Shown here one piece after another: positions 3,168 through 64,000 of a DNA stretch of 64,000 nucleotides (positions within the stretch are counted from its first letter, which is position 1; each line of letters begins with the position of its first letter). The notes under the pieces are model-generated. The model did not search any database and was not told the origin of the DNA. It worked only from the letters and a program-made list of their open reading frames with translations. The stretch is from positions 5,044,510 through 5,108,509 of the forward strand of contig OZ316892.1 in the NCBI GenBank assembly GCA_973895155.1, given 5' to 3'. The translations under genes and the position numbers were made by a program. Origin of the DNA: Marsupella aquatica (lineage: Eukaryota > Plantae > Marchantiophyta).

Positions 3168-3224
3168 GGCCTCACTGCGCACAACACATACACAAACAGC
3201 ACAGCCAGCAGCAGCGGAAGATTT

Positions 3225-36384: not shown

Positions 36385-36395
36385 GAGAGGAGCTA

Positions 36396-37338: not shown

Positions 37339-38254
37339 TGTGGTGCGTCCCATGGCTCCCCAAACCCAAGAAACCCCCCCGCACAAGCCGATTCCTGCAG
37401 GTTTTGTGCTTGGCGAGGCCGTTTCCGCGGCTTAGCGGCATGGGACGCTGCTAACCTCCTTCTACTACTACTATTAACATTTTACACACATATACTGGAC
37501 AGATCCTTCATCGGGTCATGAGATACGCAACCGGCCTAATCTAGGCCTTCTCTTGTCTTTCCCTCCTGTTGGTTAGGTATATTTGGATTCCGCCACCGGA
37601 ATGATCCCCAATTGGTTTGGTTAAGCCGCTAAGACCTCTCTCAGCTCCACACATCCAACTCTCACTCCCTTGCTTACTTCCCTTCTACTTGTTGATGTGG
37701 GCACTCTTCACACAAGTTAATGCGACACACAAATAGCAAAATGACTCCTTTTGACTGAGTTATACCATGCATTTGCAATACAAATAGTACATCTCATACA
37801 CAAGCTCTGCGAACTAAGCCGTGAGGCCAACTCTATTAAGTTCTTAGGTATGAGGAAACATGAATATACACAAGGGTCACTGTATAACTAACCGAGAGCT
37901 TCTCTTACTACTTGATCCCAGCCCTGCTAGTGCAACTAAAAACTTGCTAAAGAAGAGGCCCTGAACTCCCCACAGCCCAGGCACTTATCCTGGTTGTGGA
38001 TCCGCCTGATTCCTTGCAGCGTAAGCCTAATCTACCTATTGTAATCTACCTAACTGTAATCTACCTATGTACAGCGAGGCAGGAGCACAAGTGTCGTCCT
38101 CACCTGTGGATCCAAAATCCCACTAATCTAAGTGTCAGGGCCGTCTCCTGGTCCTGATCCTAAGTCTAAACTTGGAGATCAGCGCCCGCACTGCCCACTC
38201 ACGCCTCCTACCTCCATGTCCGCCCTCCCTAAAAGGGACGGCGCCCTTACACCA

Positions 38255-41130: not shown

Positions 41131-41155
41131 ACTCAACGTACCCGTGTTCAGTACC

Positions 41156-41251
41156 CTAAACTTTGAACTCTTCAATCCATTCGTCTGGATCATCTTTTGG
41201 TCTTCCCTTGAAGGGTACGTACTGAACACGGGTACGTTGAGCAACTGCCAT
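41156..41251 (-). pseudogene. Truncated gag N-terminus
   Basis: MAVAQRTRVQYVPFKGRPKDDPDEWIEEFKV* carries the F.G...DP..W...F motif typical of retrotransposon Gag N-termini. It lies ~600 bp downstream of the PBS. Confidence 0.55.
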
Positions 41252-41855
41252 TGATGCAACTGGTCCCCGTATCAACACAAGCGGTAATGGCGTACGTTGG
41301 GCCACCGGTAACGGCAATGCTGATAGGTGTGAGATGATTAGATTTCAGTGAGCTCTAGGATTAGATTTGGCCGTAACTCAGACTGCACCAACACAAAGGG
41401 CTCCCCTTCTTCTAGCACGTGATCTACGTCTGGCTCTTCGTCTGGACGTATGGCCTCATTGTATTGAAACCCTTCTTGCGGCACACCAACTTGTTCTTCT
41501 AGCTCCCGTGGCAACCTCCTCTCTTCTGCAAGCCGTAATCGTTCTTCGGCAGCAACCCAAGAGGGCACTCGGTCTAGCTCAGGCGTACGTGAGTGTTGGG
41601 GGCTTGCTCTCCCTCCCCTTCTTCCTCTCGGCATCCCATTGAGACCTGCATGCCAAGCTCATGAAAAAAATATCACCAACAAATCTTCCTCAAACATCAA
41701 CCGTTGCAAGTTGCGTTGTGGTTGACGTAAAATAACAAAGTAACCAAGAATTTTTTTTTTCTCAAGTATCAACCGTCGCAAGCTGTGTTGTGGTTGATAC
41801 GCTTGAACTCCAAATAGACGTAGCTCCCCTCCTCCTGCAACCAAACAAGGAGAAG

Positions 41856-41875
41856 GATCCCCGGCAGCGGCGCCA
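41856..41875 (-). other. Primer-binding site, tRNA-Asp type (TGGCGCCGCTGCCGGGGATC)
   Basis: One mismatch from the Athila-type PBS TGGCGCCGTTGCCGGGGA, preceded by a T run as is usual for that lineage. Confidence 0.75.
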
Positions 41876-43001
41876 AAAACAAGGACCACACTTATGTCAC
41901 CTATTTATCAAACAATTTACACGACAAATACGTATTTATTCCTACTAAAATCGTTTGTTATCGTATGACGGGAACGTGGAGGGACGCTATTAGGATTCTA
42001 TTGCATGTAGGATGAGTATGTTTATTTTCGCTCCCAGAAATGTAGTTTTTGATCAAGTCTACCGACTAGTCCCGCTGCTTTTGATCAAGTCCCATGGACT
42101 ACGCCACACACACACTCCTACTGGTCGCTGGTGGAGTGATGTCACCACCCCCCCTACTCACATGGTCGACCAATCCGTGCAAGTATTCTTTAGACACTTC
42201 TTGGGGAAAGAACACAATCGTGAACCAGAAAAAATGACGTCACACCAAAACTTGAGGAATCAAACCAAATCCATATCTTTTGGCAAAACGTCGTAACACA
42301 TTGCAAGGACAACCCGGCCTCCTGCCGTCTGCCCAACTACTGCCTCACTGGGGCAAGTGCTACACCTCTACCTCACTACTCTGGCTTGATTCCCTTTTCT
42401 GGCTATGAGCTAACTTCCCCAAGCAAACACTAGACTGAGTTCGTCCCCTAACTACCCCGGGGGTTTCCCCCTAAATACCCAAAAAAACACACCAAAGCAC
42501 TCCTCACGGGGCCACAACGATGGCGGCTTACCCTAGCGGCGCCGCTAAACCCTTTACTAAGAAACCCCCAAACTAAAACCATTCGGCACACACATGCTTC
42601 TAAAACCCTAAACCCTAAACTAAAAATGGGACCGGCGGTGCCTTCGACGGTGCCCCAACGTTACTCTGTGAACCGTGAAATTGCAAGGAACCCCACAATG
42701 GCCGAAACTAGGCGCCCCTCCACTTGCACTTCTGAGTTCACCCCTGGATAGCTCTCCTCCTCCTGATCACGAATCACTCAACTTCTCTCGAAACGGACAT
42801 CGGACGACCAAGTTATGGCCGTTTCCGTATCCCATAAACACAACTTCACCGGGCCATAACCTGCTCATCCTGGCTCCGTTTGAGGAGCGCCGCCCCTTGT
42901 TGGAATCAGCTCCGCGAGCTCTTTCCAAAAAGCCTGTGAGTGACCCCTCACAAAAAAGTTGGAAAGTCCAGGGGCCGTACAACCACGTCCGTACGACCAC
43001 T

Positions 43002-44842
43002 CTAATCCTCCTCCTCTTCACTCACGGTGCCCTGGCTTGAGCCCCGTGAGTGGGCCTCCTCATCACTCTCCACTGGAGTGAGTGCCACTTCACTCCTCTT
43101 CTTCTTCACCGGGGTACTTCTGGTGCTAGTGCTCCCCTTCTTCCTCAAATTGGCCAAGGTCTGCCACGCCTTGATGTACCCCTCACCAATGGTGTCCTTC
43201 CATAAGGCAGCCTCTTCACCGGACCGCAACTCCAACGGTAAAACCTGCCCGGTGGCCATGGGAGTCCCAGGGGTGACAGATCGGGGTGGCATCCCCGGGG
43301 TCCCCGTGTTGACCTGAGCTTCTCATAACGATTTACGTACCTCCCTGAGCTTCTTCTCTAAGCTCTTGCTCTTCTCTTGACTCTTCTTGGCTCTTCCAAC
43401 AGGGGTCCATACTTCCCACTGACTTCCTTCACCACCAACTCAATGGCCCTGGAGATCAAATCCGGGGAGAGTGTGGAGCTAGGCGTGCAGGGACTCTTCC
43501 GTTTCCCCAGACTCAAGGCCTCACTCCTCTTAGCCCTTGTCTCAAAGATCACCATTTGACTCCGTAGTGCTCCCACCTGGGCTCTTAACTCCACCACTTC
43601 TCCAGAATTCTACTTCTCTTTGGCCAATGCCTGTTTCAATACTCCAACCTCTTCCGCTTCCTTGGCCTTGGTGGACAAGGCTCCCCTCAAGTTGGAGATC
43701 TCTACGTGAGCTGCTTGGAGAAGTTTAACCTTCTCATGAATGGCCTCCTCCTTGGCATTGATCACCTCCTTCATAGATAGGGCACTCTGCTCCAAAGTCT
43801 CTACTCTGGCGGTGGCCTGCTTGAGAGAATCTCTCAATGCGTGGACTAGCTTGAGTCCCTCATGGACTCCCTCCCATAATTCCCGTAACTCTGCCAGGTA
43901 GACATCAGGAATTTCTTAGACCAGGGGCTCCTCCAGATCTCCCACAAGTGATTCAAGCCACTCCAATGTGGAGTCCTCATCCTGGTTTTCTTCCTCTCTA
44001 CTATCATCCCCAACCGCCGATGATGATCCCTCCGTTAGTTTCCCCAAGATGGTAGTGGCAATACTCCTGATTTCCGTGGTAAGGGATGATCCAGTGTCGT
44101 CCTGTCCCGGGGAAACAATCCACCCTTCTGCTCTGGCTAGCAAAAATGACCCCATCAAATGTACAGCCCCACCTGGTTTCACACTCCCGGAATCAGCGTC
44201 CAATAGCTTCTTCAACCCGTAGTACCACCGTCCGTACACATGGGCTGGATAGTTCTTGATGTCCATAGCTACCACGAAATGCTCTCTATTCACCACCCCG
44301 GATTGCACGTTACCAAGGACCCATTGATGAACCTTGGCCAAAAATCCCTTGTGCTCAGCATCCTTGATGGCGGAAAGAGGAATGGAAGTAGTGGAGGTGG
44401 GATTAATCACCCAACCGGCCACCATTGTCAACGTGAGCTCTCCCCTTATGTTCCGAGGTGTGAATGAGAATTGTTGGTTCTCCGGGAACAGAAGCACTAC
44501 CCGTTGGAGACATTCAAAGTAGATTCCTTCCGTACGTAACTCCATCCCGACCTCAATGTTCCAACTCTTCCCCGAAGGGATTGTAATCTCCACATTCATG
44601 AACTCCGTGAGCCCGGTGACTTGAAAAATATTCCTACAATCCTCCATCACCTTGGCGGAGGTTTTGGGATAAATTTGACGGAAAACCTTCCTACTCACCG
44701 GTATGGAACTTGCCGCCAGCCCAGTTCTCATCGTGGCTTTTCTCTCTTTTCTCTCTTTTGCAATCAATGTCTCAACGTAGTCACGGTAAGCAGCCTTGTA
44801 TCTCCGAACGCGTGCCGCACTAAACTCCGATTGATCAAGCAT
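43002..44842 (-). pseudogene. Retroelement accessory ORF region 1 (308-aa ORF 43916-44842 plus coiled-coil fragments 43610-43837, 43358-43597, 43002-43292)
   Basis: Same layout as region 2: globular N-terminus (FQVTGLTEF...FSFTPRNI), acidic linker, coiled coil, basic tail. Interrupted by stops and frameshifts. Confidence 0.45.
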
Positions 44843-45294
44843 CCATGCATCCAGAAATCAAATCCTCAATCACCAAATCTCGTCACCCGTAGCAATGTCA
44901 ATCCCCTGGCCCGAAACGGCCCCCGTATCCCGATCAATCAATTACCCTCAATTCCCTCAGAAGCCACTCTGTGCTGCTGCCGCTAATGCCCGGAAGAATC
45001 ATGCCCACAAGCCCCAACAATTGACCACGAGAAAGAGCTTCAAAAATAAGTGTAAGAGCTAGTAGAGAGCTTCCGGCATTGGGGAAATTGCTTTCGAAAA
45101 TGAGTGCAAAGTGCTTCGGCCAAGAAAGGAGTTGCGCGCGCGGAGAAGGAAGCAAAGAAAAAAACAAAGAAAAAAAACAAAGGGGAGGGAATTCCCGATC
45201 CTCCCCGTGTTACCCAGAGTCCACTTCCATGCGGCTGCCACTTCGCGGCTACTCGCGGCTACTCGCGGCTACCACCTCACGGCCAGGCAGCTTC

Positions 45295-46253
45295 CTCCTC
45301 CTCGGTCGCAGCTGGTGGGCTTGCGGCCCTATGCAGGGCTCGCGGCCCTCCCCCTCTCCGTTCACTCGCGGAGCCCTATGCAGGGCGCGCTTCATTGCCT
45401 CGGAGTGCTACGCCCCGTTTTGGGGGATTTAATTTCCCCCCTTGGCAGCCTCACTCACCGCCAGCCCCACTCGCTTTGGGGCCCGGCTCCCGGTACCCTT
45501 CCGTAGCGCTCCGCTGGTATGGGGAATTAAATTCCCCCCCTCCCTTTACTCCCTCACGGGAGAGTTAATACTTCCCCCCGACTCCTTCCTCCTCCTCGGC
45601 TGCGGCCCGGCTGCCCTTTAAATGGCACGCGGCCCTATGCAAGGCGCCTCACCCTGCCATGCAGCTATCTTGTGGCACGCGGCCCTATGCAGGGCGCGCG
45701 CTCATCTTATTTTGGGGGGGAATTTTAACCCCTCCGGCTCGCCCCCGTAGCGCCTGCTCGCCCCGCTCGCAGTCTCACCTACGCCCCGACCAAGCCTGCC
45801 ACTCGCGGTGGCCCTTCAAATGGGGGATTTAATTCCCCCCTTCCTCCTCCTGCACGCGGCCCTATGCAGGGCTCGCGACAGCCTCCTCCGTGTCCAGCCC
45901 GGCTCCGGCTGCCCTTTAAAAAACGTCCCCCTACTCACACTGCCGGGGTCACCTTTACTCATAAAAAAACTTCCTTGCTCCCGGTCCTGTTTTATTTCTT
46001 CTTCCCATCAACCTTGCTATTGAGGTCTCTAAAAATGGCCATAAAATAATGGGGAGTCCCCCAAAGGCAGGGCCCTCCGCCCAACATATTTGCAGAACAA
46101 TTAGGGGATAAAAATAAATACAGTTCTTCGGTCACAAGTGATAGAATTAACTTAAAAAAATTGAAAAAATGCTTATTTACAATGGTTATTTACACTGCGC
46201 AACACTCCGCGACCAAGTTATTCATGATTTTGAGTGACGGGGACCCCGTCACA
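45295..46253 (-). repeat. Inverted LTR copy; right arm of the long inverted repeat
   Basis: Reverse complement of 36396-37338, including the internal gcggccctatgcagggc and ggggaattaaatcccc subrepeats. Confidence 0.9.
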
Positions 46254-49200
46254 GAGACGCTTGGTTGCTTGTGCAGACAGTGAGGACTGTTGAGTAGCGG
46301 TCGTGTTAGAGAGCAAGTGTGACTTCGTATGGGAGTGGCTGCTGGTAGTGCATGGGACACTAGGTTGCTTGCTCGAGGTATTCCGTGGAGGCGTTTGGGC
46401 ACCAGGGGCACTTAGGCGTGGGTGCTGGGATTGGTGAGGGCGGGGGTGAGGGCGCTGGGTGGCAAGGTCCACCACCTCTAGCTTTCCAATGAACCTAATA
46501 TTGATAGATTTTTCAGAGTGCTAAAGAGATCATGAGTTTCTAATTTTTTCTAGCTTTACATTGAGTGTGACATAGGGTAATTTTTATCAAGTACTGAAGT
46601 GGTCATGAGTTTCTTTATGTCTCTAGCTTTCCAATAAATCTAACACTAACAGATTTCATCAAATACTAAGACTATTTACTATTTTATTTTACACTTTGGA
46701 ACCCAAGGGGTTCAAACTATTTATATGTCTATCGGCTAGTTTTTAAAAACTTTCAAAAAGTTAAAATATACAAGCATTTTGATATAAAATACCAATATAT
46801 CATTGACAAGACATCAAAATTGTAACTTTGTTTAATTTACTCAATTGTTTGTTGTTCTAAAATTCACTTTTCTGTTTTTTGATTTTTTTTGATTTTTTTG
46901 ATTTTCGCTTTGAAGTAACTCGGCGGTTCTTCCGAACCATGCGCGATCTATACTTTCCAGAGCCACTCGACGATAAACTTGTTTTTCCTTGCCTACCATC
47001 AAACAAAAACACTTGAGTTTGTATCGTGCTGAAAAAATCATTGTTGTTGTTTATGACTGAACCTGATGATGTGGCTGAACATGGTGCCAGAAATTATGGA
47101 AGAAACTTCCCATGAGGGTTTGTAAAAAATTAACAAGGGCTTTAGAAGGAGGGGAAAGAGGCAAATTACTCACTTGGTAGACAAAAGTTTGCTGCCAGGT
47201 AGGTCTAGCAATCTCATTGCATCCACCACCTGTAACCATGGCCACTATAGGTAGCCTACTTGGGTAGGTAACAACAATCACACTGTTCAACCACAAATAA
47301 CACAATATAAAACTGTAGCTCTACGTTGGAGAGTTTCAGAAGCAACCATGGTCTGCATTATTTGTTGTATAGATTTATAGTCCATGCACCCTCTCTGTAA
47401 CCTCCTGTGAAAGGAAGCCAGTAAGGAAGGCGCAAGTTTGCACCCCCAAAAATGGTCATTTTAGGAGTAGTTTCTTAGTTTACCTTTTTACAGGCAACTT
47501 TTTTGCAGCCAAAGCAATAGCTAGAAAAGACAAAATCTTAATGAACCAACTCTCTCTCTATATAGGGAAACATAATATTGTTTAAGCAGATTTATTGATT
47601 TTCATAGGGACCTGAGTGATTCTAACACAGCATTCTGTTCAGTTTACATAGGAAATGTTTGAGGAAATGTCTGATCTGTCACTCTCTGGCACTTGCACTT
47701 TACTTTATTTCTCATTCAAATTTCATAATCCCCAGGCTAGGGTGGCCCAAGGTTCCGCACCTGAGGCTAATCCACTTCACTTGGGGATAATGCCTCCTAA
47801 CCTTGTACACACTGTATACCAGGCTTTTCACTTCTCGGCTAAGTAGGGTGTTAGGACTGTATACCAGGCTTTTCACTTCTCCGCTAAGTAGGGTGTTAGC
47901 CTACACGCTCCTTTGTAGGTTACTATTTTGTCTTTGTTCCTTTGTTATCTTGTGGTTGGGGACCATTGGCTTGTTTTTCTTGCCCTTTCCCCTCTTTCCC
48001 CCCTTCATTGGGCTGCTTTGACATCGGTCTTCCTGTCTCAGGTTGGGCATTTTTTGCCCTTGGGCACTATGATATAAAAAATAATTCAGGGAAGGTTCAT
48101 CGTGACCTACAATGACCGCATTTGACATTTCTGGGAAGTGTCAAGGATGATCTGCGAGACCCAGCCGGGGATAGACAATAGACAGGGGGATAGACAGGGG
48201 TTGAGGGATGGGCCCTCAAAAAGTCCCTTTCAGGAAAGAAGGGGCCTCGTCGGGTTTCTTTTCCCGTGCAGTGGCCCAATCAAGTCTTTCTTCTGAATTC
48301 CTCTCTCAACAGCTACTGTTAGACATGGAAAGACTCTGAGCCGCGTTGACACCTTCAAGTCCAAGTTAGTGGTGGCAGTGTGGTTTGGTCTTGCAGACGC
48401 GGTGTGTTCTCAGACAACTGACCGAAGAATTCGTCAGAATTCGTCTCATTTATAACCAAAACGATTCAAGGCTGACAACTGATCGAAGAATTCGTCTCAT
48501 TTATAACGAAAAAGATTCAAGGCAAATACATGGAAGGCCAGGTAGAACCTTCTGATGTCACCGAAAAAGAAGGCAGAACTCGAGTCTTCAAGAGTCATGT
48601 TATGGAAGGGGTCCTCGTGCATACTAAGGAAAACAGCGAAAGTCAAAGGAAGGCTGCGGCACTATCTATCGGCTGACTAGGTGACTTTCAGGCAAATACT
48701 TGGGTGCAAGAGTGAAAGCGAAACCAACAATGAAAGCAATCAAAATCATATCAGAGCAGTCGTCAGAGGACTCTATCAGAGCTCTATCGTAGTAGTACAT
48801 TAAAGAATGATGAGAATTGTGGATACAACAGTAAAGGCCGGACTTCAGTGACTGCCGAAGACCCCAGTGCCTCGAGTATCATTCTAGAGCTTCTTTTGGG
48901 CTCCTTCTGATTGTCCAAAACCTGCCTCTAAGTCAATGTCTTCGTTGAAGCATGCAGCTAATTGAAGGAGCTACGGGCTATCACGCGTGTTGGACATCTG
49001 TCGAACATTCTGGTCACTCGGTCCCCTTAAATTCCTCCGATCTCGAATCGGATCTTTCCGCTGCAATGCGTGGTGAGCTATTGCGTGCCTTGCTGCTCCC
49101 GTTATTAGAGCTTTATTTTTCAATAGAAAGTACCTGCGAAGGAAAGAAATTGGATCTGCTGGTATGAGATTACATCGAGGTCTCAAATCAGTACGCCCAG

Positions 49201-49907
49201 GAAAGATATGGCAAGTAGCATATATTCACAAACTGACCCACATCCAGGCCAAAAATTATCATCAGAGAGCATTCATATTGGGGGGTACATGATCCCTCTG
49301 GACTTAGAGCAGCAAGGCGTTATACAGTCTAGACGCTCGATTAAAACCACGCCGAATCATTGATTCAGCTTCAGCTGAGTGCGCGTGGAACCCGAGGATA
49401 ACATATATACGATGGACACTGGCACGGTAGACTCGCTTGTTGTCCGGTATCCTCTATGACAAGAGTATGTGATCGCATCCCACTCCTGGACTTAGTTGGG
49501 TTCCTTAGATCAATTGCTTTGCTGTGAATTTGAATTTCGATCTGAAAAAATAGCATTGCTACCAGATTTCCATCGGTATTCGTTGTCCAAACGTGATCAC
49601 TGGCTTGCTTATGTCGAAAGAAAACTTTGCCACTACATTCCGAATCCCTAGCTCAATTAAAATAAGTCACTTATTTTGAGCTCATCGTCAAGGAGTGAAT
49701 CGACTATCAACTTCAAGAGCTCCAAATTCGTCAGGCAGAGATTCTACTATCGACTTCAACAGCTCCAAATGCACTACTGTATACATCATGTTGTGTGTAC
49801 GTGCTACGACTCGCAAAGCATGGTAGGGACCTACTTCCTACGTCGTCAGCAGGATTTCGAAGGACGTTCTTTCAGCCCTTGACAACATCGAGAGGAAGTC
49901 TACATCG

Positions 49908-51734
49908 ATGACAATGGATAATACGAGGCCCCAAAGTGGAAGCCACTGGCAGCCTCAAATACTACTTCTAGTCATAGTGCTTTCATTGCTAGGCGTCAGT
50001 TTGGGGCAGATTGGGGATTCTTGTGGTTATTCCGGTTACATTTGTCCAGCTGGGTACTGTTGCAATAATAATAAAACGTGCGGTAACACGACTGTCGACT
50101 GCGATACAAATTGTCTGGACCAGTGCACTCCTGGTCTCATGAGGTGCGGTCCCTCCCGCAGCGGGGCCATGTGTCCTGACGGCTCGTGCTGCAGCACAAA
50201 CAGTTGGTGCGGAGGAGGCAATGTGTGGTGTGCTCAAGGAAATTGTGCGTCTCAATGCCCCGCAGAAAATTGCCCCAATGGCGGCAACTGCACTTGCGGT
50301 GCAAACGGCGGTATTTGTCCAGATGGGTACTGCTGCAGTACAAGTGGTTTCTGCGGTACCACCGCCTTCTTTTGCAAAGACAATTGTGCGTCTCAGTGCC
50401 CTCCTCCACCTCCAGCTTCAAGTCCATCTCCAAGTCCATCAAGTGGACTTGATGATGGTAAGCCAGGTGGAAATAAGCTGGGACTCATTGTAGGACTCTC
50501 AACGGGTATTCCTGTCTTTCTTATAGCTTGCAGCGTTGTCATCACCCTTTTTGTGCGAAGAAGATATGGCGGTGGAGGTCATCTAGGATGGTCAACGTTC
50601 GCAGAGGACGACCCCCAGATTCAGATAGAGGGGATGCCCGAGAGATTCAGCTACAAGCAGCTGAGCGTGGCCACCAGAGCCTTCACTCCGGACTCAAAAC
50701 TAGGCCAAGGAGGGTTCGGAAGTGTGTATCGTGGGGTGCTGCCCGCATCTGGTATTCCAGTGGCAGTGAAGAAAATCAGCAGTGACTCCAGACAGGGCGA
50801 GAAGGAGTTCATGGCCGAAGTTTCCATCATAAGTCGACTGAGACACAGGAACCTGATCCAACTCCAGGGCTGGTGTCAAGATACAGCCAGAGGGAATTTC
50901 TTGCTAGTGTATGAGCTGATGCCCAATGGAAGTCTTGACAAGGCGTTGTTTGAGCCGTCTCATGGTGAAACGGCTAGCTTATCCTGGTCACAGAGGTTTA
51001 ACATAGTGACCGGCACTGCGGCTGCTGTGGACTACTTACACCAAGGATGGACGCAACAAGTGATTCATCGTGACATCAAATCTTCCAATATTATGCTCGA
51101 CAATGAATGGAATCCTAAGCTTGGGGACTTTGGTCTTGCTCGTCTGGTCGATCATCAAAGAGCAGCAGCCACAACTGTGGTAGCTGGAACCTATGGCTAC
51201 ATCGCTCCTGAGGTGGTCGCTAGTGGAAGATTCACAGAGAAAACAGACGTCTACGCTTTTGGAGCTGTGGTCTTGGAGATAGCATGCGGACGGAAAGCTT
51301 TCTCCAATGATTTCCCACCAGAGGAGACTGTTCTTGTGGACTGGGTGTGGGGACGACTTAGTGAGGATGCTGTATTAAGCACAGTGGATAAACGACTCGA
51401 AGGGAACTATGACACGTACATGATGGAAGTGATGTTGATTGTGGGATTGTTGTGTTCTCATCCTGATCCTGAGGCTCGACCTTCTATGCGACACGTTGTT
51501 GAGGTGCTTGCTGGACATGTTCCGGTTCCTTCCATTCCGGCCTGCAAACCTTCTCCAGTGTTTACATCAGACTCTCACGACTTCTTCATGAAAAGTTTTC
51601 GCGGTCCAAAGTCTGGGAGCATTTCGAAATCTGGGTCTGGGTCAATATCGCTAGTATCTAGGACCACCTCTGATTCAACGGGGTCGTCTAGTGTGACGTC
51701 AGCTGGCGTATCCTCAAATTCCAACCCATTCTGA
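49908..51734 (+). CDS. Receptor-like kinase with 3 hevein (chitin-binding type 1/CBM18) domains and a LecRK-type RD kinase, copy 1, 608 aa, intronless
   Basis: Signal peptide; three CG-x-CP-x3-CC-x5-CG-x5-C-x3/4-C-x3-C modules; Pro/Ser hinge; TM (LIVGLSTGIPVFLIACSVVITLFV-RRR); kinase with RFSYKQL, GQGGFG, VAVKK, HRDIKSSN, DFG and GTYGYIAPE. Confidence 0.93.
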   Translation: MTMDNTRPQSGSHWQPQILLLVIVLSLLGVSLGQIGDSCGYSGYICPAGYCCNNNKTCGNTTVDCDTNCLDQCTPGLMRCGPSRSGAMCPDGSCCSTNSWCGGGNVWCAQGNCASQCPAENCPNGGNCTCGANGGICPDGYCCSTSGFCGTTAFFCKDNCASQCPPPPPASSPSPSPSSGLDDGKPGGNKLGLIVGLSTGIPVFLIACSVVITLFVRRRYGGGGHLGWSTFAEDDPQIQIEGMPERFSYKQLSVATRAFTPDSKLGQGGFGSVYRGVLPASGIPVAVKKISSDSRQGEKEFMAEVSIISRLRHRNLIQLQGWCQDTARGNFLLVYELMPNGSLDKALFEPSHGETASLSWSQRFNIVTGTAAAVDYLHQGWTQQVIHRDIKSSNIMLDNEWNPKLGDFGLARLVDHQRAAATTVVAGTYGYIAPEVVASGRFTEKTDVYAFGAVVLEIACGRKAFSNDFPPEETVLVDWVWGRLSEDAVLSTVDKRLEGNYDTYMMEVMLIVGLLCSHPDPEARPSMRHVVEVLAGHVPVPSIPACKPSPVFTSDSHDFFMKSFRGPKSGSISKSGSGSISLVSRTTSDSTGSSSVTSAGVSSNSNPF

Positions 51735-52896
51735 GAGCGCAATCTCTAGTTCAGGTGACTGAACTGCCGTCCGGAACGACCAGTCACTGGCCTCGCATGT
51801 CATCTCAGAACAGAGTCTTAGTTGTCGTTCTAGCAGGACAATGTCTTTGCTCTAGAAACTGTGAATGTTCACGAGTCGGTGCTGCCAGTTGTGGAGGGGG
51901 AAGGGAAATTTGGTGTGGGCTACTCGATCAATCGTTACAGAAAAACACAAGAGCTAAAAGAGATGTTAGAGAGGCAGAGCTGGATAGGTATGTCATCAAT
52001 TGGTGACTCTCAGATTGCAATTGGGGTAAAATTCCCGTGGAAACTGCCCATGCGAAGCAAAAGCGCGAACAAAGTAATTTCTTCAGGTAAGTAGATGATA
52101 TAGCGATCCTCTGCCCCCCTTGATCTAGATTAGAAATTCTGCCAGGGAGCTTTGTCAAGTATGCGGCCTTTTTTTAACCGAAGATCATTCATGGATGTTT
52201 TTTTTGTTTATACTTTAGCCTGTGGAGTGCATTTGGCATTCAATGAAAGTCTTCCTCGAAGATCGCTTGGTCGCGAATACGAATGCTTGAATTCACCAGA
52301 CAACCGAAACGAAAGAGGGCAAGTTGGACTCTGCGGAAGATACGCAAAACCCTGGAAGCTGGATAAACTGGATCGAAGCAAACTTTAACTACTCACAGGG
52401 TACGCACTGGACACATTGTGCAGTTTGCCAAAATCAGAACTTTCGGTGTTATGATGGTAAAGTTTACCGAGCTCAAGAGTTGGGAAATTCCCGGATATCG
52501 TCTTTGACGTGAGGCTCCAGATAATCTTCGGCGACTTCAAGCACTGAAATACAGTATGCTGTGTTAACGATTGGATGGCATTTCCCAACCTGGAGAATCC
52601 GAGTAGCTTGGAAAGTCCTGGACCACTGTCTACAATGGCAATATGTTGGGCTGGGAAGTTTTACCAAGCTGCCCAAGTTTCGTTAAATTATGAGTAAACG
52701 GTGATCATAGAAATTGAATGCTGCTTCCTAGTTACGTTTCTACCTTTAACTATCCATGCGATGCGTCTCTTCTGTTGAGTCCACTCGGGGCTGAAACTAG
52801 AGGATAATCTTTCTTTTCATTAATTGAATCCCTCGCTTGTCCTAGGGAGACGTTGAACATTCTCATTGGCTCACCAGAACAAAGAGGAGAGATATA

Positions 52897-54257
52897 CTTA
52901 GTGGACCTCCAAATACAACTTGTTTTGCTAATGGACCCAAAGTTGCACACGCCCTCCCAATGGACCTCTGGGCCCACCAGAGGTGCCATTTAGTATGAGA
53001 TGTTCTTCTAACACATTGTGCAGTTCTAATAACGCGAGATTGTCACTGTAAAACGCAGCATGTTTTACTGTTCTTCAGCGTCCAACCGCATCGCCGAACG
53101 CGATCGACTACAATTGCAGTTCCGAGTGAATCAATGTATCCCACAATGTATACATTGACCACAATGCATAGAAACATGAACCGTCACTTTGGCGGGGGGC
53201 GTTTTCGTAAAGTTGGAGGGACAAATTTTTTTTCTAAGTGTGAAATCCGAATACAACTTGCAAAGTGTATACATGACAAGTCATATCTCTGTGTTGTAAT
53301 ACAATATGTTTTGTCCATTTGGGCAGGCTTCGGAGGGGGGTGTCTTCGTAAAGTCAGAGTGACAAAGTTTTTGTCTAAGTGTGAAATCTAAATACAACGT
53401 GCAAAGTGTATACATGACAAATCATATTTCTATGTTGAAATACAATAGGTTTTGCCCATTTGAGCAGGCTTCGGCGGGGAAAGAGGGGCATCTTCGTAAA
53501 GTCAGAGGGACAAATTTTTTCCTAAGTGTGAAAATCCGAATACAACGTGCAAAGTGTATACATGACAAATCATATTTTTGTGTTTTAATATGATAAGTTT
53601 TGTCCATTTGGGAAGGCTTCGACAAGGGGATGTCTTCGTCGTAAAGTCGGGGGAAATGTGCATACAACATGCATATTGTATGCAAGACACACATTTATTG
53701 TTCTATGTTGAACAGGTTTTGGTTTTGTTGATTATAGCAAGCCTTATTGCCTGTATGTAAGGCAGGGGAATCCTAACTTTGTTTAGGTGCAATCTTTGAA
53801 TACAGTGTCCACTGTGTATCCAAAGCAGATGCAACCTAGAAGCAAAGCAGACGCAACCTAGAATCGCGACGTGTCATTGCATGCGTAGAGTAAATATATT
53901 GACCATGTTGTATTCTTCCGATTGCTCTAGATTGCGGCTATTGTAGTTTGAATACAATAGCTATATTGTATTCACAAAAACTAGGAAGCCATCATGTTGC
54001 CGCGCTCAATTGCGACCAGGGCTATGACGCTTGTGGACTGCGACGTTATCGACGGCCTACTACACATGACCAACCACGGTGTCCACAGGGTATGTAGTGG
54101 ACCTGAACTGTGTGGCAAGGTGTTTCATAAGAACATGCTTGTACGGAGTGGGCCCGGGGGTCCATTGGGAGAGAATCTAAACATTGGGGTCCACTGGGAG
54201 GGCGTGTGCAACTTTTGGTCCATTAAGAGAAAAAATTGCATTTGGAGGTCCACTAAG
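52897..54257. mobile_element. Non-autonomous TIR DNA transposon (TA-flanked, Tc1/mariner-like) with an internal ~145-bp tandem repeat
   Basis: TIRs of ~70 bp: cttagtggacctccaaat...gttgcacacgccctccca / tgggagggcgtgtgcaac...atttggaggtccactaag. TA on both sides. About 3 internal repeat units at 53190-53650. Confidence 0.8.
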
Positions 54258-56381
54258 TATATATCTCGAACAAAGAGGAATGAAGACAAACAATTCACGT
54301 CGAACGCACTCTACTGGTATTTATTCCGTAATTCCCTCACTCCGAGGTGAACAATTAATTTAGTCTGACCATGTCCGCACGATGTTGTCCCTCGAGTGCA
54401 CTATTCTCATCCATTTCAGGATCATGACTCAGTTTGACTTTAAACTGGGAGAAACCACGACATAGGTTGGTCCCGAGTATCATAAATTTAACAAGAAAGG
54501 GATGAAAATATATCATATTTTTATGGTAATTCCTACTCAATTTCCCCTAGAATGTTGGCTACATTTAATGCACAACTGGGAATCCGTAAAGGCGCGCACG
54601 CCCACAAGCACGCATTGAATGTGGTGCATGAGTAGATCGATCGCTGATATTTAGTGATCAAAGCTCCCAATAGAGGGCCCTCGTTCAACTAGCCTTTCAA
54701 ATATCGCAGAGCTCTACGATGTTGAAAACCCGCCACTAGCTAGTGTTTCGTCATATCGAAATTCTTCCCGTAGGATGGCATATTACGTCACCAGTTGGTG
54801 CACTTACGTAGCCTCTGATCATGGCAATGCAAGTGAAATCGTAGTGGCGAACGCTAACCGGAAGATTTGCGGGAAGAAGGTGATGTGTTTCATCTAAGAA
54901 ACATGGGCGGAAACACGTTGTTGTCATGTGTTTGGAACCAACGTTCCTAGCTTGTCATCAAACTCGATTTCAACAGGCGGCCAATGTAAACTTAATGTCG
55001 AATCGGATGTCAGGTTCTTCTGGTGTGAACGCTACGTATTTGCATTGCGAGCTCTATGCAGAAACTTGAAGTATCATGTAACAGGAAAACTGTTTTTACC
55101 TGTACCTTAGAATCTTATTTGTTATCTGGGAGAGAAAGGCAGCTGAAACAGAGTTTTGCTTGCGTTTGTGTTTATCAATTAATGCTTGGCCGGCAATTGG
55201 TGGGGTTGGACGTCTTCCGACTAAAGAACCTAAGTACTGTGGACATTGAACGTTATTAAAATAAAAGGGTGCGGTGAAAAGTGGTTCAGGCAAGGGACCT
55301 GGCCATGCCGTCCAGCAAGCCACGTCGAGTGATCAGGTCTTGTGAAACCAAGAACAAACCCAAGCACATGAGATTCAATGGGACACGGAGGATTGAGTGA
55401 ATGAGCTTACACCGTGCCCTTTTGCCATATGCAACTTTCCTCATCTCGAAATCGGACCGATAATTCGCTACCATGGCCGGCTGGGGAGCTTTTGGGTGCC
55501 TTGCTGCGCCCGCTCTCAGTGCTTAGCTGTTCAATAAAAAACATATTTCGATGTATAGAAATAGTATTTGCTGGCCGCATACGATCTTATCGAGGTACGT
55601 CTCAAATACATATTTTGCATCGAGCATCATCCGCCCAGGAAGGATCCCAGGGAAGGATATGGGAACTTGTAGCATATTCACGAACAGGCCGACATCCAGG
55701 CCAAAATTTATCATGAGGGAGCATTCATGTCCCGGGGGGTACTTGATCCCTCTGGATTAAGAGCACCAAATTTTTCCTGTTTAGACTCTCGATTAAGACC
55801 CACGCCGAGTCATTGATTCTGCTTGAGCTAAGCGCGCGTGGAAAGCGAGGTACATACGATGGACAGTGGCACGGTAGACTCGCTTGCGGAGCGGACTCTC
55901 CTGCTGATTAGAGAATATTTGATCGCATCCCACTAGCTCCTGGACTTTCAATTCTGCTTAGTAAGCACTACGGTTCCGTAACTCAGTCGCCTCCTGCGAA
56001 TTTCAATGTCAATCTGAAGAAATACCACTGCTCGTTTGGGTCGATGTTCGTTGTCCAAATGTAGACACTGGCTTGCTTATGTCGAATGAAAACTTTGCCG
56101 CTCCGTACATTCCGAATCCCTAGGAGAGTCACTCATTTCGACCTCATCGTCAAGGAGAGATCGGGGGAGGGATTCGACTATCGACTTCAAGAGCTCCAAA
56201 TTCGTCAATTAGGAGAGATTGTACTATATATCGACTTCAAGAGCTCCCAGGTTGCTCCTGTTGCATCAGACTTGCTTTAACAGAAACCATTGTAAGGACC
56301 TGCTTCCTACGTCGTCAACAGGATCTCGCAGAACATTCTTTCAGACGTTTACAGATCATCGAGAGGAAGTCCACATCGATC

Positions 56382-58274
56382 ATGACAATGGATAATGCAA
56401 GGCTTCAAAGTGGAAGCCACTGGCAGCCTCAAATGACGCTACTTCTAGTCACAATGCTTTCATTGTTAGGCGTCAGTTTGGGGCAGATTAATATTGGGGC
56501 TCCTTGTGGTCATAACGGTTACATTTGTCCATCTGGGTACTGTTGCAATACTAATTTCACATGCGGTAACACGACTGTCGACTGCGATACAAATTGTCTG
56601 GACCAGTGCACTCCTGGTTTCATGAAGTGCGGTCCCTCCTACGACGCGGCCGTGTGTCCTGATGGCCAGTGCTGCAGCACAAACAGTTGGTGCGGAGGAG
56701 ACTATCAGTGGTGCGGTCAAAGCTTTTGCGCATCTCAATGCCCCGCAGATAATTGCCCCAATGGCGGCAACTGCACTTGCGGTGCAAACGGCGGTATTTG
56801 TCCAGATGGGTACTGCTGCAATATCAGTGGTTTCTGCGGTACCACTGCCGCGTTTTGCATACTCTCTTGTGCGTCTCAATGCCCTCCTCCACCTCCATCT
56901 CCAAGTCCAACTCCAAGTCCAACTCCAAGTCCATCTCCAAGTCCATCTCCAATTGGACTAATTGATCCTGGTAAGTCGGTTGTACTTGGTCATGGTAAGC
57001 CAGGTGGAAATAAGCTGGGACTCATTGTAGGACTCTCAACGGGTATTCCTGTCTTTCTTATAGCTTCCAGCGTTGTCATCACCCTTTTTGTGCGGAGAAG
57101 ATATGGCGGTGGAGGTCATCTGGGATGGTCAACGTTCGCGGAGGACGACCCCCAGATTCAGATAGAGGGGATGCCCGAGAGATTCAGCTACAAGCAGCTG
57201 AGCGTGGCCACCAGAGCCTTCACTCCGGAGTCAAAACTAGGACAAGGAGGGTTCGGAAGTGTGTATCGTGGGGTGCTGCCTGCATCTGGTATTCCAGTGG
57301 CAGTGAAGAAAATCAGCAGTGACTCCAGACAGGGCGAGAAGGAGTTCATGGCCGAAGTTTCCATCATAAGTCGACTGAGACACAGGAACCTGATCCAACT
57401 CCAGGGCTGGTGTCAAGATACAGCCAGAGGGAATTTCCTGCTAGTGTATGAGCTGATGCCCAATGGAAGTCTTGACAAGGCGTTGTTTGAGCCGTCTCAT
57501 GGTGAAACGGCTAGCTTATCCTGGTCACAGAGGTTTAACATAGTGACCGGCACTGCGGCTGCTGTGGACTACTTGCACCAAGGATGGACGCAACAAGTGA
57601 TTCATCGTGACATCAAATCTTCCAATATTATGCTCGACAATGAATGGAATCCTAAGCTTGGGGACTTTGGTCTTGCTCGTCTGGTCGATCATCAAAGAGC
57701 AGGTGCCACAACTGTGGTCGCTGGAACCTATGGCTACATTGCTCCTGAGGTGGTCGCTAGTGGAAGATTCACAGAGAAAACAGACGTCTACGCTTTTGGT
57801 GCTGTGGTCTTGGAGATAGCATGCGGACGGAGAGCTTTCTCCGATGAGTTCCCACCAGAGGAGACTGTTCTTGTGGACTGGGTGTGGGGACGACTTAGTG
57901 AGGATGCTGTATTCAGCACAGTGGATAAACGACTCGAAGGGAACTATGACACTTACATGATGGAAGTGATGTTGATTGTGGGATTGTTGTGTTCTCATCC
58001 TGATCCTCAGGCTCGACCTTCTATGCGACACGTTGTTGAGGTGCTTGCTGGACATGTTCCGGTTCCTTCCATTCCGGCCTGCAAACCTTCTCCAGTGTTT
58101 ACATCAGACTCTCACGACTTCTTCATGAAAAGTTTTCGCGGTCCAAAGTCTGGGAGCATTTCGAAATCTGGGTCTGGGTCAATATCGCTAGTATCTAGGA
58201 CCACCTCTGATTCAACGGGGTCGTCTAGTGTGACGTCAGCTGGCGCATCCTCAAATTCCAACCCATTATTCTGA
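56382..58274 (+). CDS. Receptor-like kinase with 3 hevein domains and a LecRK-type RD kinase, copy 2, 630 aa, intronless
   Basis: Tandem paralog of 49908-51734 with a longer (SP/TP)n hinge and a nearly identical kinase. The flanks (~0.9 kb 5', ~0.55 kb 3') are also duplicated. Confidence 0.93.
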   Translation: MTMDNARLQSGSHWQPQMTLLLVTMLSLLGVSLGQINIGAPCGHNGYICPSGYCCNTNFTCGNTTVDCDTNCLDQCTPGFMKCGPSYDAAVCPDGQCCSTNSWCGGDYQWCGQSFCASQCPADNCPNGGNCTCGANGGICPDGYCCNISGFCGTTAAFCILSCASQCPPPPPSPSPTPSPTPSPSPSPSPIGLIDPGKSVVLGHGKPGGNKLGLIVGLSTGIPVFLIASSVVITLFVRRRYGGGGHLGWSTFAEDDPQIQIEGMPERFSYKQLSVATRAFTPESKLGQGGFGSVYRGVLPASGIPVAVKKISSDSRQGEKEFMAEVSIISRLRHRNLIQLQGWCQDTARGNFLLVYELMPNGSLDKALFEPSHGETASLSWSQRFNIVTGTAAAVDYLHQGWTQQVIHRDIKSSNIMLDNEWNPKLGDFGLARLVDHQRAGATTVVAGTYGYIAPEVVASGRFTEKTDVYAFGAVVLEIACGRRAFSDEFPPEETVLVDWVWGRLSEDAVFSTVDKRLEGNYDTYMMEVMLIVGLLCSHPDPQARPSMRHVVEVLAGHVPVPSIPACKPSPVFTSDSHDFFMKSFRGPKSGSISKSGSGSISLVSRTTSDSTGSSSVTSAGASSNSNPLF

Positions 58275-60312
58275 GAGCCCAATCTATCGTTCAGATGACT
58301 GAACTGCCGGCCGGAACGACCAGGCACTGACCTCGCCTTTCAACTCAGGACAGTATTAGTTCTCGCTCGAGCAGGTCAATGTCTTGGTCTAGATGCTGTG
58401 AATGTTCACGAGTCGGTGCTGCCAGTTGTGGAGGGGGAAGGGAAATTTGGTGTGGGCTACTCAGTCGTTACTGAAAAATACACAATTTGTAAAGAGCTAA
58501 ACAAGATGTTAGAGAGGCAGAGCTGGATAGGTACGTCATCAATTGGTGAAACTCAGATTGCAATGTCGGTCAAATATTCTGCAATTTCTTCAGGTAAATA
58601 CGTACAGCCACCTTCTGGCCCCTTCAATTATTCGAAATTTTGCCAATAAGCCTTGTGGAGTACGCGCGCTGTATGTTCATGGACGTTTTGTTTAGTCTGT
58701 AGCTGGTGGTGTGCATTTGGCATTTAAATCGATGTACTCCTCGAAGATTGCTGAGACGCTAATACGAATGCTTGAATGGACCAGATACAAAGGAAGCGAA
58801 AGAGGTCAAGTTGGACTCTTTCAAAAATAATCTAAACCCTGGGCCATTGGAAGCTGGAGAATGCATGCGTGGATTAAATCTTAACGAAGCAAAGCTTTTT
58901 TAGTTTTGCCATACTCGCTGAGGCAGCTACGGAGACTAACGTGGACTTCACAGAATAATGAATACACTAGTTATAGTGATCAGATAAGTACGCATTTTTC
59001 TCCCGAACTGAATACTTAAGAGATCATCTACTTTGGATAAGAGAATTTGGACAATTTTTCAAATGCAAGCTCCAGTTGGATATTCTAAGGCATGTTTTGG
59101 TAAAGACTGAATTATATGTGAAACAAAATGACTCAAGTACTAGTGAATAGATACGTACACATTTTACTCCACAACCGAATCGAATACTTCAAACACCATC
59201 TACTTTAGAGAAAATAAACATTTGGATAGTTTTTCAGGGCTCCAGTTATGTATTAAAGACAGTTGGCAGATAAAGCCTTCCTTGAGGGCTTCCTGCTTCA
59301 GGGCTTTCATTGACGAGATTTCCAATAGAGGGACAGATGTATCTTATGGTGAGTAGTGTACAAAATTTGAGCGCTTTCATTTAATCAGGAGTTCTCCCTG
59401 GAGTATTCTATGTTGAGTAATGCACTGAATTTTTGAAAACTTTGTGCAGACAAAAGGAGAAAAATGAGAGTTTTGCTACCACAGAATTCCTATCTGACTT
59501 CTGAACCTAGTGTTTCTTTTGATAAAGACCCTCAAATCTACAAGTTAACCAAAAATTTAGATATGCTTAAAGTAGAAATCTTTCCCCAGAGTACTGTAGG
59601 TGAAATGGGACCATCTAGTGAGAACTTCTACTAGCTTAATAATTAGAGAGAATCTTAAAGGGTGATGTTATTACAAGGGAGAAAGCGGTTTTTTTTTTTC
59701 ATTTCTACTTCGTGAAACACATTCATTTCTCAGATACATTCTCAAATGCCACCCAACTTATAATTTAAGCCTTACTCTGGCTGCCCACTGAGAGAGGTAC
59801 TAGATCCATCAATAGTTATTGCCTGTAGCGATGATTGCATTTCTATACGTCCCCCAATTTGCAAACAATTACATTCAAGTTCCTAGTGATGCTTGGTTCA
59901 CATACTCTCATGCTATTTCATATAACTTCACCCAGACTTAGTTTTTTGCAGTAACTTAGTATTAAATTGCAGTGCACTCTTGCACTATCTTGCTGTTGCA
60001 TTTGAAATTCTTACTGGGTGGATGTCCTACCCCTTAGTAACAATGAACCTTTTCTCTAGCCTCTACCATGTCTGCCACACAGCACGACTTATCTTGGCAC
60101 TCATGAGGTGAACTCCCCTTGTGGCATGATTGGAGTTTCAACTATGACAGAAGTCCTTCCTGGGGGTTCCTTCCAACGTGTCCCTTAACCCACCAGCTGC
60201 ACTCAAAAGGGGGAAGTGTCCCAAAACTTCTCCCCTTTTCACATTCCAGTCAATTTAGCCATGCTCCACAATGGCAACCTCCTCCATAATTCAGGAAAAT
60301 GATGGTAGTTAT

Positions 60313-60661: not shown

Positions 60662-63600
60662 AACTCCCCCTTGACTCTTGTCTTGGGGACTGGACTAAAT
60701 GCTACCATATGGAATCCTCAACGGGAAGTTCTAGACAATCACCAAACCAGGTCCTCCCCTAAAAACCACAAGGGTTAACTAAGGGTTAACTAGCTAGAAC
60801 TAAGCCATAGCTAAACAAGAATGAGTAATCCATATACAAATAGTCACACACTGCTAAATAACTCTACTTGTACTACAACTGCAAAACCTGCAAAGTAGCA
60901 TGGTGTCTTGAGAAACTCTCCAAAGGAATCACTTTGGTAAAGGCATCAGCGGGATTGAGCTTTCCATCAATCTTGACTAGCTCTTGAAAAGGTTTATCAG
61001 ACACTGCTTGCCTGATAAAATGGTACCTGATATCAATGTGCTTCACCCTGCTATCCATCACCTGGTTAGCAGCCAAGTGAAGAGCACTCTGACTATCACA
61101 GTTTAGAGACATTTTGCCATGCTCTAAACCCATCTCCGTGATCAACTTATCCAACCAAATTGTTTCCTTTGCTGCTTCTGCTACTGCAACATACTCTGCT
61201 TCTGTAGTAGACTAAGATATACACTTCTGCAAGGTAGATTTCCAACTGATACATCCTCCTCCAAGAGTAAATACAAATTCAATTGTAGACCTCCTTGTAT
61301 CCAGACAACCTCCATAGTTAGAATCTACATAGCCAACTAACCTTCTATCTGATCTGTTATCAAATAGTAATCCATAGTCCTATGTTCCCTTCACATACCT
61401 GAGAATCCACTTCACAGCTTCCCAATGTACATTTCCTGGATTTGACATGAATCTGCTAACCTTGCCATCGCTAGAGCCAAGTCAGGCCTAGTACAAGTCA
61501 TCAAATACATCAGACTGCCTACTGCCTTCTCATAAGCCAAGAATCTTAGCCATCAGACCTTTCTCCACAGCATCCGTAGGAGAGAAAGCCGATGATAACT
61601 TGAAATGTGAAGCTAAAGGAATACTCACTGGCTTACAATTCTCCATGTTGAATCGTGCAAGTACTTTCCTCGCATACTGGCCTTGACTCAAGCATAACTG
61701 TCCAGTCTCAGAGTTCCTAAAAATCTCCATCCCTAAGATCCTCTTGGCCTTACCAAGATCCTTCATCTTGAATTCAACACTCAATTTTGCCTTGAGACTG
61801 TCAACCTCAGATTGATCTTTAGTCACAATCAGCATGTCATCCACATAGATCACCAGAATGATGAAACCAAACACATCATTCTTGACTGGTTTCATATACA
61901 CACAAGGATCATACACCATCCTTGTAAAACCTTGAGCAAGCATGAAATCATCAAACCGTTTGTTCCACTATTTGGGAGATTGCTTCAATCCATACAAGGA
62001 CTTGAGCAATCTGCAAACTAAGTTCTCTTGGCAAGTCTTCATAAACCCTACTGGCTGTCTCATGAAGATCATCTCTTCCAAGTTGCCATAGAGAAAAGCA
62101 GTAACAACATCCATCTGATCCATTACCAGACCAAAAATACAATAAACTGACACAAGATCCGAATTGTGGAATACGTTGCCACCAGTGGAAAGAGCTCATT
62201 GTAATCCTCTCCTTTCTCCTTAGTGAATCCCTTGGCAACAAGCCTTGCCTTGTAGATCTTATCTCCACCCTCTGAAGGACTATCCTTCAACTTGTAAATC
62301 CACTTGTTGTCCACCACTTGCTGATCTCTTGGAAGCTCCACCAACTCCCATGTCTTGTTGTGACTCAAAAATTGCAACTCCCTCTGCATTGTTGCATTCC
62401 ACTGCTTCTGCTTTGAAGCACAAGCTTCACTGTATGAAAAAGGCTCTCCTTCTTCCAAGATCAAAGTCATGTCATCATCATCAGGTGCAATATCAATATC
62501 ATCTAGCTTAGATGAGTCTGCCCATTGATCATACTTGGTAGGAGCTCTGGTAGAACGATTGGAAGTTCTTCTAGTAGATGACTCAGGCTGATCTGCTACT
62601 GCTCCTGGTTGAATTTGAGGTACCCTAGCAACAATCTGCTCCTCTTGTTCCATCACAAGAACCGGCTCCAAGCCCGGAGCTTCTCCATCTCTCTTGTCAT
62701 GAACAACATCATGACTAATCTTCCCCTCAACCCGGTCCGGGATGGGAGATTTTCCCTTGTCAGTATGGGAGTCCTGAGAACTCCCCCCCTCCTTTGATGA
62801 TTTGGATTCATTAAAGGACACATCTCTACTAACAATTAGCTTACAGGTTACTGGATCCCATAACCTATAACCCTTCACGCCTTTCTGATAGCCAAGGAAA
62901 ATGCACTTAGTTCTTTGACTTGGACTCTAGCTTGGATCGAAGCTGGGAAGGTGTAAGCACATATGCATCACATCCAAAAATCTTTAGATGTGAGTAATCT
63001 GGTGGATGCCCGTACCTCATTTCAAATGACATCTTGAATCCAATAGAACTGGATGGAGAAATTTACCAAATAAGCTGTAGTGTTGACAACTTCAGCCCAA
63101 AACTCATGTGGTAAGCATGATTGACTCAACATACTCCTTGAGCAGTCCAATAGTGTTCGATTGAGTCTCTCAAAAACACCATTCTGTTGAGGAGTATAAC
63201 TTGTTGTGAGATGGCGGGTAATCCCCTGCTCCTTACAATACGTTCCAAATTCCCCGGAACTGTATTCATCGTCATTATCCGATTGAAGATATCTCACCTT
63301 ACTACCAGTTTGATTTTCAACCTGGGCTTTCCACTCTTTAAAAGTGGCAAAAACATCAGACTTACTGTGTAGAAAGTATATCCACATATACCTTGAGTAA
63401 TCGTCTATGAACATGACATATTAGTATAACCATCCAGAATGTGAGGGAGTAGGGGCTGGACCCCATACATCGCTATGTACATACTCAAGTACCTCCTTGT
63501 TGGTGTGAGTTCCAACTCCAAAGGGTTTCCTGTGCTGCTTTCCAAGCACATAGTGCTCACAGAATTCCAACTTACAAGATTGCAAATTAGAAAGTAATTC

Positions 63601-64000
63601 TTTCTTCTGAAGAATAACCAAACCTTTTTCACTCATGTGGCCCAAACAAAAGTCCCACAGCCGGGTCATCTCTTCATGAGATAAGGTTACATTGGCTTCA
63701 TCATAGACTACACTGCCCTCCAAAATGTATAGATTATTATGTCGCTTTCCCTTCAATACAACTTTAGTACCAGTTAAAATCTGAAGGACACCATTAGCAA
63801 AACTCCACTGATAGCCATTTGCTTCTAGAACTCCAAGTGAAATTGAGATTTTTCATCATGCGAGGAATATGTCTCACATTCCTCAACGTTCTCACAACAT
63901 CATCAAACATCTGAAATCTAACAGATCCAAGTCCAACTACTTGACATGGGATTCCATTTCCCATCAACACTGACCCATTGGAAACTGTGTAAGAACAAAT
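60313..64000 (-). mobile_element. Degenerate Ty1/copia LTR retrotransposon, 5' part beyond the window
   Basis: Minus-strand order: GAG-pre-integrase (LGHMSEKGL, HSDVWGP), integrase (IDDYSR, TPQQNGV.ER.NRTL), RT (KARLVAKGF, MDVVTAFL, SLYGLKQ, YVDDML), RNaseH (CDSQSA, KHIDIRYHFIR). Many stops and frameshifts. Confidence 0.95.

Follow-up and report, generated by a model that had tools for sequence, protein, structure and literature searches.

Chitin perception in plants is known via LysM receptors, and in the liverwort Marchantia polymorpha the available part of a genetic study shows the role of MpLYK1 and MpLYR: chitin-induced reactive oxygen species (ROS) and defence-gene expression are abolished in the lyk1 and lyr mutants, the ROS assays having used the GN7 oligomer (bioRxiv 10.1101/2022.12.28.521631). 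Receptor-like kinases (RLKs) headed by hevein modules have also been catalogued in Marchantia, with one hevein(2x)/kinase and one hevein(4x)/kinase listed in Table S3 of Van Holle and Van Damme 2019 (PMC6362431). A 64,000-nucleotide stretch of the liverwort Marsupella aquatica (assembly GCA_973895155.1, contig OZ316892.1, positions 5,044,510 to 5,108,509 of the forward strand; the window, in which all positions below are counted) carries a tandem pair of genes, each encoding three hevein modules on a kinase of the L-LEC family. The gene pair is real and intact, and likely constitutes an independent, L-LEC-based version of the receptor design already catalogued. Judging from sequence and a structural model, the two proteins are predicted single-pass receptors, and the chances appear evenly balanced that they sense polymers of N-acetylglucosamine (GlcNAc), fungal wall chitin among them, and thereby provide an accessory input to defence.

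In Marchantia, the hevein kinases Mp1g00210 (MpRLK-Pelle_SD-2b) and Mp7g16250 (SD-2b6) belong to the accessory genome, and both are up-regulated at 3 days post inoculation with Colletotrichum (Tak-1) and with Phytophthora, according to the supplements of PMC12890914, where they appear, being unnamed in the accessible portion of its main text. These Marchantia entries (PMC6362431, PMC12890914) rule out that the architecture is unknown. The novelty proposed for the locus in the initial annotation holds for function, as no functional study of any hevein receptor kinase was found in a literature search covering few subscription journals, and fails for the architecture, at least as listed in PMC6362431. 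Large RLK catalogues may list the architecture as well, and the word 'hevein' is absent from the text of a 2026 review of glycan receptors.

The gene pair and its hevein modules

Copy 1 (49908..51734, 608 aa) and copy 2 (56382..58274, 630 aa) lie on the plus strand, as do all their features given below, and are intronless and free of internal stops, neither needing an intron for its full reading frame. Each occupies one unit of a direct duplication of about 3.2 kb, in which an upstream region, the gene and a downstream region (49196..52355) pair with 55646..58842, also on the plus strand, at 83.9% identity over 3300 columns. No third gene copy or further hevein core was found inside the window, no W-box occurs in the duplicated upstream regions, and an exact look-up of both proteins in the sequence collection gave no match. 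Four public runs from two studies contain 66–89% of the sampled words of the window, and in runs X1, X3 and X4 copy-specific contig pieces of both genes, including pieces that run from module 3 over the hinge into the beginning of the receptor-derived part, match the window with 0 differences; one matching run may be the source of the window itself. No RNA data set was listed among the runs sharing words with the window, which carries no information on expression. An assembly chimera is ruled out by the copy-specific contigs running from module 3 into the receptor-derived part, and a pseudogene by the intact frames and the purifying selection on the kinase. The tandem order of the two genes rests on the assembly, because no public contig spans both.

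Both proteins share a hydrophobic N-terminus, three 8-Cys modules with an extra Cys pair, a Pro/Ser hinge, a transmembrane (TM) helix, a kinase and a Ser-rich tail. The matches above the Pfam cut-offs are just Chitin_bind_1 (44–45 bits, cut-off 27.8) and Pkinase (E about 1e-48), plus the related PK_Tyr_Ser-Thr; in either protein, there is no Pfam match to a LysM domain, and the legume-lectin domain PF00139 is absent at E up to 0.1. The signal peptide predicted for copy 1 (aa 1–33, 49908..50006) follows from hydropathy windows starting at aa 14–19, its cleavage site being inferred, and the signal peptides and TM helices of both copies are hydropathy-based predictions.

The 26 Cys of each ectodomain comprise the three 8-Cys modules and one pair between modules 2 and 3. 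Scanned singly, modules 2 and 3 exceed the Chitin_bind_1 cut-off in each copy (28.5–35.9 bits), with module 2 at 50145..50258 (30.7 bits) and 56628..56741 (28.5 bits) and module 3 at 50295..50399 (35.9 bits) and 56778..56882 (33.0 bits); module 1 (50022..50126 and 56505..56609) scores below it (15.0 and 17.2 bits, respectively), yet keeps all 8 Cys. The extra pair of copy 1 (C122 and C128, 50271..50291) would form a disulfide, in a linker modelled with low predicted local distance difference test (pLDDT) values. The Pro/Ser hinge of copy 1 (50400..50474) likely holds the fusion point, and copy 2 has a longer Ser/Pro/Thr hinge (56883..57011) that includes a tandem repeat of 6 and 12 bp. The ectodomain of copy 1 was modelled with AlphaFold2 from a 52-row alignment built from hevein proteins; the model reached a mean pLDDT of 80.4 (43 in an earlier model from a 2-row alignment) and a predicted template modelling score of 0.50, too low to place the modules relative to one another. 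Its best structural matches are pokeweed lectin-C, reed lectin and wheat germ agglutinin, and it superposes on single hevein/CBM18 domains at 1.0–1.2 A across 39–41 columns, which, at the level of a predicted model, shows that the modules have the hevein fold. Pokeweed lectin-C, wheat germ agglutinin, nettle agglutinin and the head of class I chitinases have tandem 8-Cys modules of this same fold, but these multi-hevein lectins and chitinases are soluble and lack a kinase, and the pokeweed lectin-C modules examined keep aromatic 21.

The first sugar subsite of hevein consists of Ser19, Trp23 and Tyr30 and the second of Trp21, according to the accessible part of PMC6908686. Compared at positions 19/21/23/30 (in the order Ser19, aromatic 21, aromatic 23, Tyr30), module 2 reads S/N/W/W in both copies, module 3 reads S/S/F/F in copy 1 and N/S/F/F in copy 2, and module 1 reads N/N/T/D in both. 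The complete site (Ser19 with aromatics 21, 23 and 30) is thus found in 0/6 modules, and Ser19 with aromatics 23 and 30 in 3/6 (3/4 among modules 2 and 3). In both copies module 1 has two sequons for N-glycosylation, including one on the site itself at position 21, and in copy 2 the change from Ser to Asn at position 19 of module 3 creates another, N-I-S. The pattern of Ser19, aromatic 23 and aromatic 30 occurs in 126 of 481 hevein cores from 146 related proteins, and aromatic 21 in 316, in a set chosen by likeness to the query, not by proven binding. Given these residues, chitin binding by modules 2 and 3 would be weak and avidity-dependent. The initial annotation had described two intact genes with signal peptide, three 8-Cys hevein modules, hinge, TM and RD kinase, and the frames, Pfam matches, motifs and hydropathy agree with it; so do the CBM18 match in sequence and fold, and the residues it reported, with Ser kept in modules 2 and 3 except module 3 of copy 2, two of the three aromatics kept, and the site of module 1 lost.

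Kinase ancestry and other hevein-headed kinases

The predicted TM helices (50478..50552 in copy 1, aligning to that of L-type lectin receptor kinases, LecRKs; 57015..57092 in copy 2) precede kinase domains at 50688..51500 and 57225..58037 that are 97% identical. In both kinases all catalytic motifs are present, namely the Gly loop, VAVKK with the catalytic Lys, the helix-C Glu, HRD, DFG and APE, and these RD-type kinases are predicted to be active. Among structures, a lectin receptor kinase scores highest (307 bits), compared with 233 bits for BAK1 and 163 for CERK1, and the pair nests in the bryophyte L-LEC clade beside the LecRKs of Calypogeia fissa in both trees, with support of 100/98 in the careful 25-row LG+G4 tree and a Shimodaira–Hasegawa approximate likelihood-ratio value of 99 in a quick tree of 70 rows picked from 122 kinases. 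Kinase identity to the nearest LecRKs is 69–74%. The placement would by itself suggest a liverwort source, perhaps a leafy one. Bryophyte LecRKs (C. fissa P0015–P0019; MpRLK-Pelle_L-LEC) have the same TM, juxtamembrane and kinase parts but carry a legume-lectin domain where the pair has hevein modules, and the likeness to LecRKs can be followed from within the hinge, or just past it, through the TM. Among the best 120 relatives, drawn from 6472 scored hits among 7985 candidates, most have a legume-lectin domain and none has PF00187 (hevein), which points to an ectodomain swap; as far as sequence comparison goes, the data are most simply read as a swap onto an L-LEC kinase. Both the replacement of the legume lectin on a LecRK-like kinase and the domain shuffling invoked for it at the outset are borne out by the trees and the relatives. 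Such swaps also happen elsewhere, as grass proteins carry DUF26 ectodomains on L-LEC kinases: P0105 and P0114 (Phragmites, Lolium) have DUF26 ectodomains and kinases named L-type lectin IX.1-like, and P0105 clusters with L-LEC kinases.

No orthologue with the same architecture was found in a word search (residues 34–200, 0/697 candidates scored), in the profile search or among the HMMER hits listed. In the ectodomain profile search, one of 20 hits is the BSP-hevein-kinase XP_074270039 of Silene latifolia, and the full HMMER scan, with 150 listed of 199 hits, gave two listed hits with a kinase, a hevein(2x)-TM-non-RD kinase of Riccia and a LecRK fragment. The Riccia and Silene kinases share 39% and 42% identity, respectively, with those of the window. 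The Riccia fluitans protein (R1flu_017622, P0190) is similar to the pair in having hevein modules N-terminal to a TM and kinase, but its kinase is non-RD (HLD) and its two modules have complete sites (S/Y/F/Y and S/F/Y/Y), unlike the incomplete ones of the window. The Silene protein (P0143/P0136), which shared words brought into the search, has in common with the pair its hevein modules (two), Pro/Thr hinge, TM and RD kinase, as well as sites without aromatic 21 (S/S/F/Y and S/L/F/Y); it differs in an extra BSP (PR-17-like) domain and in a kinase outside the L-LEC clade, named cysteine-rich-RLK-like by NCBI, and, being a single gene model, may be a false gene fusion. Marchantia Mp1g00210 and Mp7g16250 also combine hevein repeats with a kinase (PF00187 + PF00069), but their kinases are annotated SD-2b and they are listed with two and four modules, against L-LEC, RD and three modules in the window. 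We infer that the Riccia and Marchantia hevein kinases are orthologous, the Marchantia genes having been compared by annotation, not sequence. In approximately unbiased (AU) tests, in which the Riccia and Silene kinases are long branches in a tree with no anchor sequences, one clade of the window pair and the Riccia kinase was narrowly rejected (p 0.041) and one of the pair, Riccia and Silene was not (p 0.124). Taken together, these comparisons suggest that hevein heads on kinases likely had three separate origins, in the window, in Marchantia/Riccia and in Silene.

Divergence of the copies and possible ligands

Between the copies, the ectodomain is 79% identical, with 0.135 nonsynonymous (dN) and 0.125 synonymous (dS) substitutions per site and dN/dS of 1.08, and the part from the TM to the end (TM-kinase-tail) is 98% identical, with dN 0.011, dS 0.041 and dN/dS 0.26, a significant difference in dN/dS (Fisher p 0.004). 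In the kinase alone, dN/dS is 0.23 and dN is below dS (p 0.004), indicating purifying selection, and 26 of 26 Cys are kept versus 26% change at other positions (p about 4e-4). A fast ectodomain with a conserved kinase is the usual pattern for recognition domains; the divergence is consistent with a fold that is maintained while its surface changes, and the constraint on kinase and Cys argues for function. The dS of 0.04 in the TM-kinase-tail is well under the 0.125 of the ectodomain and the 0.10–0.18 by which the flanks of the two genes diverge, so the kinase part looks partly homogenised, and conversion is suggested. This last point, together with an ectodomain dN/dS of about 1 and the lack of a same-architecture orthologue among the searched candidates and listed hits, would suit a chimera of recent, lineage-specific origin with a drifting ectodomain, with kinase copies kept alike by gene conversion, and with genes that do little. 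Nevertheless, the frames are both intact, the constraint on Cys and kinase is as described, and module 1 kept its Cys frame after losing its site before the duplication; a drifting chimera is thus considered very unlikely.

The kept Cys, eroded sugar residues and changing surface would also fit a protein ligand, and the hevein and Pro-hinge head may be a bait that, by imitating the front part of class I chitinases, detects the fungal proteins attacking these enzymes, for instance fungalysin proteases, instead of sugar. The head does resemble the hevein-hinge part of class I chitinases (57% over module 3 and hinge with P0137), and wheat WAMP peptides, which have a weakened sugar site, inhibit fungalysin via their likeness to the class I chitinase hevein domain, according to the accessible part of PMC10136942. 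However, a pure bait would have no use for the Ser19 and two aromatics that 3/6 modules keep, and the protein partner is hypothetical, so that a bait function seems unlikely. Even less probable, in fact remote, is that the proteins sense the plant's own GlcNAc-bearing glycoproteins or a fungal symbiont, in development or accommodation rather than in defence: a lone terminal-GlcNAc subsite could suit short GlcNAc ends, and many liverworts host fungi, but the tandem duplication, the fast ectodomain and the pathogen induction of the Marchantia analogues point to defence.

In the pair, three hevein modules take the place of the lectin domain of a bryophyte LecRK. If the proteins sense GlcNAc polymers as proposed, modules 2 and 3, retaining just the terminal-GlcNAc subsite (Ser19, aromatic 23, aromatic 30), would each bind weakly, and module 1 would serve as a spacer bearing glycans. 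Several receptors would then be clustered through avidity on a polymer or hyphal wall, and the clustered RD kinases would trans-phosphorylate and feed ordinary immune signalling. In copy 2, with a sequon on the site of module 3, a single working site may shift the threshold or change the ligand. Detection of short, soluble chitin oligomers would remain largely a task of LysM receptors, and the pair probably acts beside the known chitin receptors, not in their place. A defence role is plausible by analogy with the Marchantia hevein kinases, up-regulated with fungus and oomycete.

Several observations weigh against sugar sensing in defence. Aromatic 21 and Tyr30 are missing from all six modules and the site of module 1 is gone in both copies, and in model peptides Ala for any of the three aromatics, or Ser19Asp, weakens chitin binding, as reported in the accessible part of PMC10136942. 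The excess of dN/dS above 1 in the ectodomain lacks significance (p 0.85), and the sugar site is not enriched in changes (8/30 vs 20/78, p 1.0); therefore, relaxed selection fits as well as diversification. In Marchantia, Mp1g00210 is also up-regulated with Pseudomonas, and the infection response is termed generic in the available part of PMC12890914, so induction says little on the ligand. Moreover, since the Marchantia kinase type differs and the Riccia sites are complete, the analogy to the window pair is loose.

The initial annotation went further and proposed chitin receptors that start immunity without any LysM receptor. Each protein of the pair unites a sugar-binding fold with an RD kinase of its own in a single chain, and its L-LEC origin is unrelated to CERK1, as the structure scores given above illustrate. 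LysM receptors (CERK1, LYK5, MpLYK1, MpLYR) likewise have three small modules on a single-pass kinase, but their ectodomain fold and kinase clade are unrelated to those of the window, and their role is genetically shown, whereas GlcNAc as ligand of the pair is a proposal. Marchantia has two hevein kinases, yet its lyk1 and lyr mutants lose the chitin-induced responses, so LysM receptors are still needed there for the rapid response to oligomers. These data, from another species and another kinase subfamily, weaken LysM independence without refuting it; the claim is unsupported here. The use of GN7 for ROS and the induction of the hevein kinases by infection leave room for a polymer-triggered or late route, but with the incomplete sugar sites of the window a primary receptor is quite improbable. 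A broader reading, speculative and unlikely, is that at least three recruitments of hevein, on L-LEC, on SD-2b in Marchantia/Riccia and on the cysteine-rich-RLK-like kinase of Silene, may form an overlooked convergent class sensing insoluble chitin or hyphal walls and able to signal without LysM receptors.

Surroundings of the pair and meaning for chitin perception

The spacer between the two genes contains, at 52887-54267, 80-bp inverted repeats (89%) around a 141-bp tandem array of 3.2 copies, which looks like a non-autonomous DNA element. Upstream of copy 1, reverse transcriptase, RNase H and integrase open reading frames (ORFs) of a gypsy-type element (33398-36384, plus strand) are followed at 36393-46256 by inverted repeats of about 950 bp (36393-37338 and 45295-46256; 89%) around long minus-strand ORFs, of which the two scanned gave no Pfam match; downstream of copy 2 lies a broken copia-type pol (integrase, RVT_2; 60873-63852, minus strand). 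At 22749-26979 (plus strand), an alpha/beta-hydrolase ORF is followed by an NB-ARC-LRR ORF, with an in-frame GT-AG intron (23451-24330) between them, giving a hydrolase-NLR, a type that occurs in liverworts. A cation-efflux (MTP-like) gene (1932-3650, minus strand), accompanied by a partial copy (1-1032, 79%) and a tandem repeat (3219-3903), and an EamA gene (18417-19691, plus strand) are single open frames; angiosperm relatives of both have several introns. Two further ORFs are one with the acidic C-terminal motif of SCNM1 (7867-8550, plus strand) and one with a helicase-like motif of the kind seen in PIF1/Helitron proteins and no Pfam match at E 0.01 (28300-28701, minus strand).

For the receptors themselves, the window pair contributes what is likely an independent origin on a different kinase, and offers a natural series of sugar sites: intact, partial and lost. 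The question is testable in Marchantia, which is knockout-ready and has two fungus-induced hevein kinases, with LysM mutants as background. Hevein heads, if the proposal is true, would be small swappable ectodomains for receptor studies, and a second, convergent hevein-based chitin route would, if true, broaden the picture of chitin perception.

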